Assembly: GCF_030013595.1 (NCBI RefSeq)
Contig: NZ_CP122768.1
Reading direction: 5' to 3' (one strand)
Origin: Escherichia coli
GTDB taxonomy: Bacteria > Pseudomonadota > Gammaproteobacteria > Enterobacterales > Enterobacteriaceae
DNA: 64,000 nt
A program made the position numbers and the translations under genes. The notes under the pieces were generated by a model that saw only the letters and a program-made list of their open reading frames with translations, searched no databases and had not been told where the DNA came from. Position 1 is the stretch's first letter. Every line of letters starts with the position of its first letter. Positions 48,325-50,241 of the stretch are shown in pieces.

Positions 48325-48545
48325 GCTGCACCTCCGAGATGCTTCATGTTTTTTCCGGAGCGAAAGGTTATAAGCGGCATACTGACGCGGTAATTACGGC
48401 CCAGCGGTTCACAAATCACCTTCTGACATTCACGGTCAACCAGGCTAACACGTAGAACATGCCCTGCAGGTGTGGTGTACCACTGACCCGGACGAGGACA
48501 ACGGAAAGTCTGATTGGTAAACCGTTTGAAAATATTCCGGATCAT
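48321..48545 (-). CDS. hypothetical small protein
   Basis: 74-aa ORF overlapping neighbours at both ends; no motif recognised. Confidence 0.35.
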   Translation of the reverse strand: MIRNIFKRFTNQTFRCPRPGQWYTTPAGHVLRVSLVDRECQKVICEPLGRNYRVSMPLITFRSGKNMKHLGGAA

Positions 48546-49087
48546 TTGCGCCCCCTTACCTCTGAAGGGTTCAGCGACAAATTTATGAGGCAGGCCAGTG
48601 CCGAAGCATCATTAATATAGTCATACAAGCTAACAGCCAGCGGAGATTCGGCTTTTGCCAACATAGGATAAAGCTGCTGCAGCCAGACCTGATGAATTGA
48701 TGAAATGTAGGAACAGAGAACGCTGGCGTTATGTGCAACGTCGCTCGGTACAGCGGGCTTTGAAAGCTGTTTCTCCATCTGGTTAAAGGCATTGATGTAT
48801 GCCTCTTTGAACTGGGCAGCACGTTTACCCGTGAAACCCATAGCAAGAAACGCAAAGCCGTCGCGGGTTATTTGATAGCAAGGTAGTTTGCGGCCTGTGC
48901 AATCGGTGTAATCACTCACCGAAAAATTGCGGGCAGTGAATGATGCGGAACATTCAAGCGTGCGGATCTTTTTCAGTACATCGTCATGACGTTTGGAGAA
49001 GAAGTTGGCAACAGCCAGGGATGAAGTAACAGCCTGACCATCAACGATGGCAATTTCAGGTTGAGTGAGGGTTGGGATCGTAGCCAT
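48542..49087 (-). CDS. Rha-family phage regulatory protein (frame open upstream to 49693)
   Basis: MATIPTLTQPEIAIVDGQAVTSSLAVANFFSKRHDDVLKKIRTLECS matches the Rha N-terminal domain; upstream in-frame ATG at 49693 overlaps the preceding stop. Confidence 0.6.
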   Translation of the reverse strand: MATIPTLTQPEIAIVDGQAVTSSLAVANFFSKRHDDVLKKIRTLECSASFTARNFSVSDYTDCTGRKLPCYQITRDGFAFLAMGFTGKRAAQFKEAYINAFNQMEKQLSKPAVPSDVAHNASVLCSYISSIHQVWLQQLYPMLAKAESPLAVSLYDYINDASALACLINLSLNPSEVRGRK

Positions 49088-49689
49088 GATGGCAGCCTCT
49101 TTGGTGATTTTTAATAACTCACCACCAAGGCTTTCCACGACCTTATTGGTGGTGAGACGTACAGGGGTGGAAATACCGGTCACCAAAGAACCCGGCCCAA
49201 CCGAAGTTGGCCCTGCACGCCCCACCATAATTTGGGCGTAATGCTGCTCATGACACAAAAAAACCGCAAGAGCGCGGTTGTGCGCTTTGGTGAATTCCGG
49301 GTTTCCACGCCCGGCACCCGCTTTATAAGGTGCCTGAACAGTGTAACGTCCCGGAATGGCAGAATCAATGTGCTGGTGGTCCTTCACACTCAACAAAATC
49401 ACGCCTGAATTTCCACAAAGGACTAAAGCATTCATGCGGGTAGTCTTTGCGAAGATAGATAACGCGCTGTGTTTCTGGCTCCCAACGAATAACATGAACA
49501 TAAAGTCCTCTTCCGTCACGAAACCAGCGGTTAAGTTCCTGCACAACTCGCCCCCCACAGTCAGGTAAAGTTCTCTGTGGTTACTTACAGCCAGGTGATT
49601 TGGTAATCTGCATTCATGCCGTAACAACAGGTGTGCAGCGACACTGACCACCAGCTGTTGCGACAAACGGTTATTTGCCGTTAAACTGT

Positions 49690-50241
49690 TCATGCGTTAG
49701 TTTCTCCACAGACACAAAACGCCACGACGCCCGGAGCTGCACACTCGCGGGCGTCACTCTTTTCTGGAGCGCAGAAAATTTTGTAGACCAGTGCCGCATG
49801 CTCCTGGAGCTTCGAAATTGACAGATACAATTCATCATTAATTGCTGTCTGCTCGTGTGGCTCCACTACCCCATCTTCGATTGCCGAACGAATCTGCTTT
49901 GAGTAACTCCCGATCTGTTCGATGACTTCCAGCAGGCGCTGGTTTATATCTGCGTTCTCTACTTCCTCAATTTCAGGAAGCGATACAAACACCCCACCAG
50001 CAGACTGTGCGACAGCATCCGCAATGTAGTGAGTGCCAGCAGCACGCTGTAAAATCATTGCCCATCCCAGCGGGAAAATCTGATCGCCATCTGCACGAAG
50101 GCGGTTGAATAAAGCGTTCTCTGTAACATCCAGCCACTCAGCAGCTTCAGCGTAACCCCCCGGCAACGCCGCGATAGTTTTTCTGACAGCTTTCACGTAC
50201 CACTCAGGCTGTTTTTCCACTTTCCAGTGATGATTACCCAC
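49690..50241 (-). CDS. hypothetical early-region protein (cII position; YdaT-like, tentative)
   Basis: 183-aa ORF immediately downstream of the cro-like gene. Confidence 0.45.
   Translation of the reverse strand: MGNHHWKVEKQPEWYVKAVRKTIAALPGGYAEAAEWLDVTENALFNRLRADGDQIFPLGWAMILQRAAGTHYIADAVAQSAGGVFVSLPEIEEVENADINQRLLEVIEQIGSYSKQIRSAIEDGVVEPHEQTAINDELYLSISKLQEHAALVYKIFCAPEKSDARECAAPGVVAFCVCGETNA

Follow-up and report, generated by a model that had tools for sequence, protein, structure and literature searches.

The 383-codon frame and its surroundings

Where does the product of a phage regulatory gene begin when its frame is open far upstream of the only domain that can be recognised in it? 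The question is posed by a locus in a 64,000-nucleotide stretch of an Escherichia coli contig (the window). Here a Rha domain occupies the C-terminal half of a 383-codon frame on the minus strand (48542..49693), behind an internal ATG at 49087 that is M203 of the frame. The original prediction saw two possibilities: either a 383-aa protein with an unrecognised N-terminal domain is made, or the open upstream frame is coincidental.

The observations behind this choice were confirmed. The ORF list shows the frame open over 383 codons to 49693, and the Rha matches lie behind ATG 49087 (Pfam Phage_pRha, residues 223-308; TIGR02681, residues 214-312), with scores above the curated cut-offs (PF09669, 106 bits against 29.9; TIGR02681, 103-105 bits against 45.95). 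At the upstream end, the minus-strand junction reads CGC-ATG-A-AC (49696-49688). The first ATG (49693-49691) is overlapped by the TGA stop (49692-49690) of the preceding gene, which yields the expected ATGA (49693-49690). This preceding gene (49690..50241, minus strand) encodes a cII-like regulator of 183 aa, which PGAP names ymfL (Phage_CP76, PF06892, 7.9e-15; PHROG 101, “CII-like”). RefSeq/PGAP annotates a product of exactly 383 aa (WP_001087308.1, “Rha family phage regulatory protein”), and of 5426 complete E. coli genomes, 557 contain the 1152-nt region at a coverage of at least 80%. Pfam also places a Phage_ASH domain (PF10554, 57.8 bits) at residues 117-213.

The inner nested gene, the Rha-family regulator proper (48542..49087, minus strand; 181 aa; TIGR02681, 2e-30), behaves as a coding sequence. 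Its SNPs fall on codon positions 1, 2 and 3 in the numbers 32/25/67, an excess on the third position, and its PHROG neighbours are annotated as Rha-like or as anti-repressors. The Rha stop overlaps the ATG of the next gene (ATGA), a 74-aa ORF (48545-48321, minus strand), whose stop is in turn overlapped by the start of a replication protein (48324-47506, minus strand), so named from the annotation in mEp460 and E. coli 4/1-1. With the junctions AAATGATC and GCATGAGT, 47506..48545 continues the same chain-coupled early operon, the whole of which is linked by 4-nt overlaps.

A gene, a candidate promoter and two regulatory RNAs in the upstream 202 codons

The first 49 codons of the long frame (49545..49693, minus strand; N1 in the following) fill the space between the ymfL stop and the start of a DUF4222 gene, and gave no match to a protein family or to Rfam. 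The DUF4222 gene itself (49365..49544, minus strand; 59 aa, GTG start; PF13973, 9.5e-14; PHROG 1343, 1e-36) is wholly embedded in the long frame, but is read in another frame. Its TGA stop falls within the -35 hexamer of a candidate constitutive promoter, P_isrK (49340..49368, minus strand), which consists of TTGATT (49368-49363), a 17-nt spacer and TACACT (49345-49340). A simple consensus promoter scan did not flag P_isrK because only 8 of 12 positions match, which is below the threshold of 9. The block is nevertheless invariant in 11 diverged cassettes and occupies the same position as the isrK promoter of Gifsy-1 (TTGACA-N17-TATATT), for which activity and start site have been published (PMC4825925). 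Invariance and homologue together suggest that P_isrK acts as a promoter.

Directly downstream lies an IsrK/seqA-type sRNA (49257..49333, minus strand; start at about 49333), found by Rfam with 67 bits against a threshold of 50 (RF01394). It carries two putative decoy sites, a1 (49308-49302, GUGGAAA) and b1 (49293-49285, UCACCAAAG), and the terminator scan places an intrinsic terminator at 49279-49262, followed by U7. The fold of IsrK alone is no better than that of shuffled sequences (z=-1.0). The region also gave a weak c4-a1b1 match in Rfam. A weak mir-875 match from the same search was dismissed as chance.

The second RNA is of the C4/CI antisense type (49145..49232, minus strand; RF01695, 83.6 bits against a threshold of 45) and folds stably (MFE -44.6 kcal/mol, z=-4.1). 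Its structure is retained in 19 cassette types, where 8 of the 27 pairs show compensatory changes and 0 are broken. A conserved in-frame AUG (49228-49226) sits in its 5' stem. The recognition loops b' (49188-49180, CUUUGGUGA) and a' (49173-49167, UUUCCAC) are complementary to b1 and a1 of IsrK, which co-vary with them as expected of an upstream seqA/IsrK element. A second set of complementary sites forms the target region (seqC/a2-b2; 49096..49138, minus strand), recognised from the sequence: a2 (49138-49132, GUGGAAA) and b2 (49107-49099, UCACCAAAG). The latter overlaps the Shine-Dalgarno sequence (SD) AGAGG (49100-49096) of ATG 49087.

In 23 cassette types, b' and b2 form 10.5 contiguous pairs on average in cognate combinations, compared to 6.3 in non-cognate ones. 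Across the cassette types a1/a'/a2 and b1/b'/b2 co-vary, which gives about 20 specificity types. For the a sites this statement rests on reading the cassette alignment, since the automated a'-a1/a2 score was uninformative due to the mere 6 nt extracted. The trio of C4, IsrK and target thus represents the RNA immunity elements of the P4 type, with three-way co-variation. ATG 49087 and its SD are invariant across cassettes, with co-variation between SD and C4 loop; 49087 is therefore a genuine, regulated start, and the functional Rha product most likely begins there.

Residues 1-202 as a peptide

The phase of polymorphisms was determined among relatives found with the Rha protein as query, whose 94-100% identity makes them useful for phase but not for independence. 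No third-position excess was found in the upstream part of the 383-codon frame, unlike in Rha. In N1, the SNPs are distributed 10/12/5 over the codon positions of the long frame, which is therefore without a coding signature here. In the DUF4222 stretch the distribution is 5/23/4, and the 23 are the third positions of DUF4222 itself, to which 23 of the 32 SNPs in this gene thus belong. In the RNA cassette it is 14/11/8.

Sequence comparison and structure prediction give the same picture. In the C4 region the amino-acid identity is 0.59 in frame 0 and 0.58 in frame 1, and variable sites in the Ash region are spread evenly over the codon positions, with a variation that tracks the loops and stems of the RNAs. 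AlphaFold models are confident only from about residue 211 (pLDDT 59-91); residues 1-210 stay below 50 (21-30). The Ash segment (PF10554) does not behave as a folded domain, with a pLDDT of 23-26 and an identity no higher than that of the wrong frame. N-terminal extensions at other loci (13 to 301 aa) are mutually unrelated and gave no family match. SNP phase, frame-wise identity and AlphaFold all agree that residues 1-202 are no selected or folded peptide, and the unrecognised N-terminal domain of the original prediction is not borne out.

We also considered whether Ash corresponds to the epsilon (ash) protein of P4, as the name is used in PMC8628076. This was ruled out: epsilon matches PF25738, while PF10554 matches the Eta/“cI 137-aa” ORF.

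Openness and coupling of the long frame

If the upstream residues are no domain, the long frame may never be translated. Its span would then yield just two proteins, DUF4222 (59 aa) and the 181-aa Rha that begins at ATG 49087, and the 383-codon ORF would be an annotation artefact, open by a chance lack of stops in RNA and promoter sequence and in the shadow of DUF4222. The peptide-level results above fit such an artefact, as do a promoter, a terminator and two RNAs inside supposedly coding sequence. Rha might suffer from carrying 202 unstructured residues at its N-terminus. The distribution of stops argues the other way. Over the upstream 202 codons the long frame has 0 stops and the other two frames of the same strand have 13 and 8. 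Among 20,000 dinucleotide-preserving shuffles, which contained 7.3 stops on average, 0.045% were stop-free in the given frame (P≈4.5e-4), and the openness is therefore beyond chance. Permutation of synonymous codons in the DUF4222 gene of the window, on the other hand, left the frame open 41% of the time, so that openness was not significant in this test (P=0.41).

For independent sampling, a DNA pattern of C4 was used and returned 144 unique contexts. Of these, 68 share the same upstream arm and are near-identical, and therefore not independent, a point that counts in favour of the artefact. In 88% of the 144 contexts no stop interrupts the frame over at least 94 upstream codons, which takes it past the promoter; the corresponding values for the other two frames are 0.7% and 30%. 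When the cassettes are clustered, 15 of 23 clusters are stop-free in the long frame, compared to 1 and 8 in the others. The openness is specific to the long frame even between diverged cassettes (about 60-70% identity), with 0 stops against 13 and 9 within C4, and indels between cassettes are multiples of 3. These findings count against a frame that is never read.

The coupling recurs as well. In 8 of 21 upstream contexts the first ATG overlaps the upstream stop (ATGA), and in 3 more it lies 5 nt past the stop; the upstream genes include unrelated ones, as at locus L004, where the long frame persists. At another locus (L150), a toxin-antitoxin-like pair is inserted within the long frame, which continues for 507 codons with 0 stops (26 and 29 in the other frames; P=0.006 under synonymous permutation).

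Natural variants favour the artefact. Rha is intact in three loci in which the frame is broken, two by a 1-nt deletion (L081, L037) and one by a shift into DUF4222 (L003). Against a role of the long frame also stands that several Bro-N/ANT-type loci as well as Gifsy-1 work without one. The arrangement of L003 could also mean that N1 and DUF4222 once were a single ancestral gene. We rejected this because its relatives L135 and L193 retain the long frame, so that the L003 lineage looks like a frameshift variant.

Taken together, stop avoidance is specific to the long frame and its start is recurrently coupled to an upstream stop. Coincidence explains neither the open frame nor its ATGA coupling, since both recur in many independent contexts and match the experimentally studied eta/kil arrangement of P4 described below. 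With the start at 49087 upheld and the upstream frame retained, the alternatives of the original prediction stand only in part: the internal start is real, while neither a hidden domain nor coincidence accounts for what precedes it. An untranslated frame is, in our view, unlikely.

Comparison with related systems

Phage P4 provides the closest design. Its elements follow in the same order: an outer start in an ATGA, an internal promoter, for which the window has the candidate P_isrK, then IsrK/seqA, C4/CI, a target over an SD, and an inner gene. Eta of P4 (199 aa) starts in an overlap with the stop of ORF88, and isrK and C4 matches are found at 8692-8615 and 8507-8420. The eta product is reportedly 197-199 aa long and Kil 65 aa. 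A P4 ORF with an MMM start fits the range of 197-199 aa, and the kil ORF is 65 aa. The target (seqC/a2b2) overlaps the kil ribosome-binding site, SD and start of kil (GGAGGCTGCCATCATGGCTAC) are identical to those in the window, and the first residues of the inner genes (MAT..) match. PF10554 matches residues 22-146 of Eta as it matches residues 117-213 in the window. According to the summary given in PMC10111431 of Forti et al. 1999 (PMID 10464191), eta shows coupling to the gene before it, and termination is prevented when eta is translated. A homologous outer ORF that is described there as translated and functional further speaks against an artefact in the window, whose long frame likewise starts 5' of the internal candidate promoter, is coupled and spans the RNA genes in frame.

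P4 differs in being a satellite phage with a 65-aa Icd-like Kil as inner gene, whereas the window holds a lambdoid prophage with a cI/cro/cII-like module and a 181-aa winged-helix regulator, Rha. The outer ORF of the window extends 116 codons further upstream and crosses the DUF4222 gene in another frame. The spacer between seqA and CI is about 107 nt in P4 but 24 nt in the window, and the IsrK of the window has a clear intrinsic terminator. The system is thus of a known kind, the nested-gene design of P4 eta/kil, and a new member of it in a lambdoid e14/mEp460-like prophage.

Gifsy-1 shares IsrK with a terminator, and with a promoter where the window has its candidate, a following C4-like RNA (STnc1160/orf45'), an antirepressor-like gene with an SD complementary to the C4 loop, and a leader AUG at the equal position within the C4 stem. 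Its leader ORF differs in having 45 codons, being closed one codon upstream and overlapping anrP in another frame (AUGA), whereas the frame in the window is fused in phase to Rha and runs 155 more codons upstream to ymfL. A leader of the Gifsy-1 type, i.e. a short ORF from the C4-stem AUG with a stop/start overlap, is not found in the window. The module of Gifsy-1 follows gene Q, while that of the window belongs to the early operon.

This comparison raises the alternative that only the last 47 upstream codons matter. Translation would start at the C4-stem AUG 49228 to give a 228-aa Rha fusion, and the remaining sequence, including the ATGA at 49693, would merely hitch-hike. The AUG is invariant, and in 127 of 144 contexts its distance to the Rha ATG is 138 or 141 nt. 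It corresponds exactly to the AUG of orf45 (+107) in Gifsy-1, where the frame is closed one codon 5' of it. In Gifsy-1, orf45 is translated, and the antirepressor AnrP requires translation that starts at this AUG within C4 (Hershko-Shalev et al. 2016, PMC4825925). The same authors noted that orf45 and anrP of S. dysenteriae are fused into a product of 287 aa. However, a start at this AUG predicts neither that the sampled lambdoid and P4-like frames remain open far beyond it nor that they begin next to the stop of an upstream gene. Moreover, no SD is obvious in front of the AUG, which lies hidden within the closing stem of C4. We thus regard it as distinctly improbable that this AUG is the start that matters.

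In the immI operon of P1 and P7 (c4 - icd - ant), the antisense RNA is processed and recognises its partners through two loops; decoys precede it, and targets follow it over the SD of the first gene. Differences in loop specificity cause heteroimmunity (Citron and Schuster, Heinrich et al.). P1 and N15 differ from the window in that the first gene is a short one (icd or gene 32) translationally coupled to ant, and they are not known to have an outer ORF that starts 5' of the promoter. N15, which has an antirepressor operon with a processed RNA (Ravin et al.), gave isrK and C4 matches, and its icd-like and ant genes are chained to a leader ORF.

The e14 element of K-12 shares the junction of ymfL stop and ATG, with about 40 nt of identity, as well as the reading frame with an overlapping DUF4222 ORF, but there the frame ends at 112 codons and no IsrK-C4-Rha module is present. 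N1 diverges sharply from e14 past codon 12. Between window and e14, the DUF4222 proteins are 64% identical without gaps, compared to 33% over 99 aa, with gaps, in the YmfM frame; the YmfM-similar stretches fall where DUF4222 constrains the DNA. YmfM of e14 is credited with inhibition of cell division. The overlap raises the question of whether YmfM or the overlapping DUF4222 frame is the basis of the SfiC filamentation phenotype of e14.

A genuine 383-aa protein composed of an N-terminal YmfM-like cell-division inhibitor, an “Ash” domain and Rha could draw on the ATGA start and frame shared with ymfM (112 aa) of e14, on the SOS-inducible filamentation reported for over-expressed ymfM, on the Pfam and PHROG families with an Ash+Rha architecture and on the PGAP product, but it is very improbable given the gapless conservation of DUF4222 over YmfM, the SNPs on DUF4222 third positions, “Ash” residues that alter radically wherever RNA loops and stems alter, the pLDDT of residues 1-210 and the unrelated extensions elsewhere.

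Proposed mechanism

We propose, with a probability of roughly 0.6, that the locus is an RNA immunity switch of the P4 type built into nested ORFs of the early rightward operon of a lambdoid e14/mEp460-like prophage. By analogy with P4, P1 and Gifsy-1, we infer the processing of the RNAs (by RNase P and others), the direction of regulation and the anti-termination by translation.

Transcripts from the internal promoter would be subject to this immunity. After processing, C4 would pair through its b' and a' loops with b2 and a2 and thereby mask the SD of the Rha ATG 49087, and the short IsrK, made from the same promoter and ended at its own terminator, would titrate C4 with its decoys a1 and b1. 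Due to the masked SD and the early termination, such transcripts should yield little or no Rha and, as in P4 and P1, also little read-through into the replication genes.

The start of the long frame at the ymfL overlap lies upstream of the internal promoter and would therefore be carried only by transcripts from the repressor-controlled early promoter. On these, ribosomes ending ymfL would re-initiate at 49693 and cross DUF4222, the promoter, the IsrK terminator, C4 and the masked SD. The RNA would thereby stay unfolded and translated, and Rha would be made as a fusion. Expression of Rha and the replication genes could thus escape the phage's own RNA immunity and terminator.

Codons 1-202 would then specify a peptide without a function of its own. 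We give even odds to the view that the outer frame is a modular “ribosome bridge” selected for translatability only, which overrides the RNA immunity and avoids polarity on the replication genes. Such a bridge could be re-coupled by ATGA to whichever gene is upstream and would survive swaps of about 20 RNA cassettes. It should also tolerate whole genes inserted in another frame or on the other strand, such as DUF4222 and the pair at L150, as long as the phase remains open.

Implications

The 383-aa “Rha family” protein and the “Ash family” of Pfam and PGAP are largely conceptual translations of a promoter and two regulatory RNAs. A survey of regulatory regions of Stx phages from 2022 lists the Ash domain without an assigned function (PMC8951638). 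If the bridge reading is true, thousands of “Ash family” and long “Rha family” proteins in the databases would be bridges, and these loci would offer a clean case of ORFs selected for translation itself and not for its product. The elements described here place an antisense-RNA immunity layer in the style of P1 and P4, with many exchangeable specificities, behind cII and ahead of the replication genes in common prophages of the lambdoid, e14-like and Stx types. It would bear on the control of induction and on cross-immunity among co-resident prophages and satellites.

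The long frame and its junction with ymfL

On the minus strand, the stop codon TGA (49692-49690) of a 183-aa cII-like gene (Pfam match Phage_CP76, PGAP name YmfL) is overlapped by an ATG at 49693-49691, from which a frame runs for 383 codons without a stop and ends at 48542. The original prediction was right about this overlap and about the Rha domain, which starts shortly past M203, the internal ATG 49087 (PF09669, aa 223-308; TIGR02681, aa 214-312). RefSeq annotates exactly the 383-aa protein, and the region is present at a coverage of at least 80% in 557 of 5426 complete E. 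coli genomes. Across the 202 upstream codons this frame contains no stops, as compared to 13 and 8 in the other same-strand frames; among dinucleotide-preserving shuffles, only 0.045% lack stops in a given frame. The observation therefore holds up, and chance is an unlikely cause.

The upstream 606 nt hold several elements, all on the minus strand. The first, N1 (149 nt), has no family match and no RNA match. It is followed by a 59-aa DUF4222 gene in another frame (49544-49365; Pfam 9.5e-14, PHROG 1e-36), whose stop falls inside an invariant block TTGATT-N17-TACACT (49368-49340), a candidate promoter placed like the isrK promoter of Gifsy-1. Next come an IsrK/seqA-type sRNA (49333-49257; 67 bits, threshold 50), closed by an intrinsic terminator (49279-49262, then U7), and a C4/CI-type antisense RNA (49232-49145; 83.6 bits, threshold 45; MFE -44.6 kcal/mol, z = -4.1). 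In the target region, b2 (49107-49099) overlaps the SD sequence AGAGG (49100-49096) of ATG 49087. Other RNA matches in the window are an Rfam IS009 family match (14891-15089, minus strand; 226 bits), one tRNA match (40538-40609, minus strand) and, near the far end, three identically scoring tRNA matches in a row (60445-60764, plus strand).

The RNA switch

Eleven diverged versions of the module were aligned, and 23 types of the IsrK-C4-target cassette, sampled from IMG/VR, were compared. The C4 structure keeps 27 of 27 pairs, eight of them with compensatory double changes and none broken. The b' loop of C4 (CUUUGGUGA in the window; 20 distinct loops among the 23 types) varies in step with b1 in IsrK and b2 over the SD, with means of 10.5 (b'-b2) and 9.0 contiguous base pairs for cognate against 6.3 and 6.4 for non-cognate combinations. 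In the eleven-version alignment, the single-stranded a' (UUUCCAC) covaries with a1 in IsrK and a2 in the target, and ATG 49087 and the SD-to-ATG block are invariant. The RNA switch is real, its anatomy is present in the window, and 49087 is a regulated start, very probably the C4-controlled start of Rha proper. The switch follows the logic of P1/P7 immI and P4 seqA/CI/seqC; earlier publications already equate IsrK with seqA and C4 with CI (PMC3632133, PMC4825925, PMC10111431).

Openness of the frame across relatives

C4 loci were sampled by a DNA pattern that takes no account of the genes downstream or the frames upstream. In 88% of 144 unique contexts, the frame that holds the C4-controlled ATG extends past the promoter, with 94 or more open codons upstream, as compared to 0.7% and 30% for the other two frames; 68 of the contexts have the same upstream arm as the window and hardly differ from one another. 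Among the cassette types, 15 of 23 have no stop in 82 codons of the long frame (1/23 and 8/23 in the others). Within C4 the long frame has no stops, against 13 and 9, and indels between cassettes in the eleven-version alignment are multiples of three. At a spacing of 137 or 140 nt, it is the frame of the conserved C4-stem AUG that is open. Some P4-like and icd-like loci (L101, L190, L103 and L116) are of this kind: their inner ATG is out of phase, and the C4-AUG frame is still open for 111-167 codons, overlapping the small Kil/Icd-like gene of another frame.

The start of the frame is coupled as well: in 8 of 21 distinct upstream contexts its first ATG forms an ATGA overlap with the stop of a long upstream ORF, and in three it lies 5 nt past the stop. 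The coupled start usually lies about 100 codons before the inner ATG and shortly before the promoter (e.g. GGAGGTGCACCTATGATC). In sampled locus L004, an unrelated upstream gene is followed by 3 nt, the long-frame ATG and then DUF4222 in another frame. Tandem arrays of two or three cassettes (L091 and L086) are chained likewise. Cassettes in twos or threes occur at L091 1491-3648 and L086 1711-2972 and also in L157, L162, L148 and L141; each outer ORF of an array overlaps the preceding stop by 4 nt. A frame of 507 codons in L150, crossing DUF4222 and two minus-strand toxin-antitoxin-like genes, has no stops compared to 26 and 29 in the other frames (P = 0.006, synonymous-codon permutation of its three genes). 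In L150 (836-2359) and L182, these HTH-antitoxin-like and Gp49/HigB-like genes sit between DUF4222 and the IsrK promoter. The early operon of the window is chained throughout by stop/start overlaps, and without the long frame this chain would have a 600-nt break.

The long frame is thus unlikely to be a mere artefact, or the coincidence that the original prediction had offered as one option, given the 0.045% of shuffles and the recurrence of frame-specific openness and coupling across the sampled C4 loci. For the window by itself, permuting the DUF4222 codons gives no significant result (P = 0.41), and the frame is broken with Rha kept in the single loci L081 and L037 (1-nt deletions) and in the frame-shifted L003. 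The open frame is NEVERTHELESS not a coincidence.

Precedents and proposed mechanism

Phage P4 has the same design: eta, an ORF of 199 aa with three Met codons in a row, overlaps the ORF88 stop, RNA matches lie at 8692-8615 (isrK) and 8507-8420 (C4), and kil, of 65 aa, has a start, GGAGGCTGCCATCATGGCTAC, that is the same in the window. As PMC10111431 summarises Forti et al. 1999, transcripts from a constitutive promoter inside eta are terminated via CI-seqA/seqC pairing, Kil is translated on read-through only, and Eta, translatable only from an upstream promoter and coupled to the upstream gene, prevents termination by its translation. In Gifsy-1, a translationally inactive leader is relieved by IsrK in trans, and the antirepressor AnrP needs translation from an AUG within the C4-like region (PMC4825925); the sequence confirmed that this AUG, at +107, is the conserved C4-stem AUG. 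Gifsy-1 was also confirmed to have no long outer frame. That only the 47-codon leader from AUG 49228 matters in the window, as in Gifsy-1, is rather improbable.

From the P4 and Gifsy-1 precedents we therefore propose that the outer frame is functionally translated, with a probability of about 0.6. Transcripts started at the internal promoter would supply IsrK and C4, with ATG 49087 staying masked, which would be the lysogenic state. On transcripts from the repressor-controlled early promoter, ribosomes would pass from ymfL into ATG 49693 and read on through the terminator, C4 and the occluded SD. Expression of the replication genes and of Rha, as a fusion and perhaps from 49087 or 49228 too, would then not depend on C4. 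The direction of regulation, RNA processing and anti-termination by translation are presumed by analogy with P4, P1 and Gifsy-1.

No selection on the upstream peptide

Polymorphic sites in close relatives were counted per codon position of the 383 frame. Rha has the usual coding signature (32/25/67), as compared to 10/12/5 in N1, 14/11/8 in the RNA cassette and 5/23/4 in the DUF4222 overlap, where the peak falls exactly on DUF4222 third positions. For 19 cassette types, variable columns within C4 are distributed 15/16/17, and mean amino acid identity is 0.59 in the 383 frame and 0.58 in a wrong frame. AlphaFold pLDDT values stay below 50 over residues 1-210, where block means are 21-30, and are 59-91 over residues 211-377; the input alignment of 33 sequences is shallow, so the low upstream values are supporting evidence only. 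The peptide encoded by the upstream 202 codons is not under selection, and the unrecognised N-terminal domain, the other option of the original prediction, has to be abandoned. In the relatives compared, the inner start is invariant and no upstream peptide is conserved, but the upstream frame is still kept open.

That the product is a genuine multidomain protein whose N-terminus resembles YmfM is highly improbable: K-12 ymfM, a reported division inhibitor with the same ATGA start and frame, is only 33% identical, compared to 64% for the overlapping DUF4222 frame. This e14 gene ('cell division inhibitor', 112 aa; 3323-3681 of K-12 locus L212, NC_000913.3), compared with window 49365-49693, fully overlaps a DUF4222 ORF of another frame, which is the conserved one, with SNPs on its third positions. 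In the available part of the literature, filamentation was attributed to the gene from clones or deletions of the entire ORF, and the phenotype could therefore belong to either frame.

Pfam 'Phage_ASH' matches aa 117-213 of the 383-aa product. The 'Ash protein family' PF10554 matches P4 Eta (aa 22-146) and the obsolete P4 'cI 137-aa' ORF, whereas P4 epsilon (ash) matches PF25738 (P4 loci compared: 8168-8767 and 7888-8175). PF10554 is a translation of the seqA-CI RNA region; a survey of P4 satellites took it as the profile for epsilon (PMC8628076).

IsrK/C4 modules in lambdoid prophages and the eta/kil nesting of P4 are both already published, and C4 and isrK matches inside satellite 'Bro network' genes were noted in 2023 (PMC10111431). 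In the searchable literature we found no description of how widely stops are avoided in one specific frame while the peptide is not conserved, of repeated new coupling to unrelated genes upstream, of genes being tolerated inside the long frame, or of the 'Ash' domain as translated RNA.

Exchange of RNA specificities

A 74-aa ORF past Rha (48321-48545) starts with MIRNIFK (ATGATCCGG...), the same start as in many outer ORFs of other cassettes (MIRNQHIDS, MIRYLNIDS; L036, 3043-3921, begins MIRNIFKLFTNRHQHIDS). The ATGATC junction may be a recombination boundary for cassette insertion or deletion. Many loci have both flanks about 99% identical to the window and an IsrK-C4-target region only about 60% identical, which is a cassette-like exchange of RNA specificities. 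For window 49088-49333, this pattern with DUF4222/Rha flanks is seen in L018, L052, L004, L068, L002, L085 and others. Recombinant a/b cassettes exist (L085 combines an L002-type a with an L003-type b), and there are at least 20 different b' loops. These sequence comparisons suggest that RNA immunity specificities are often swapped among prophages.
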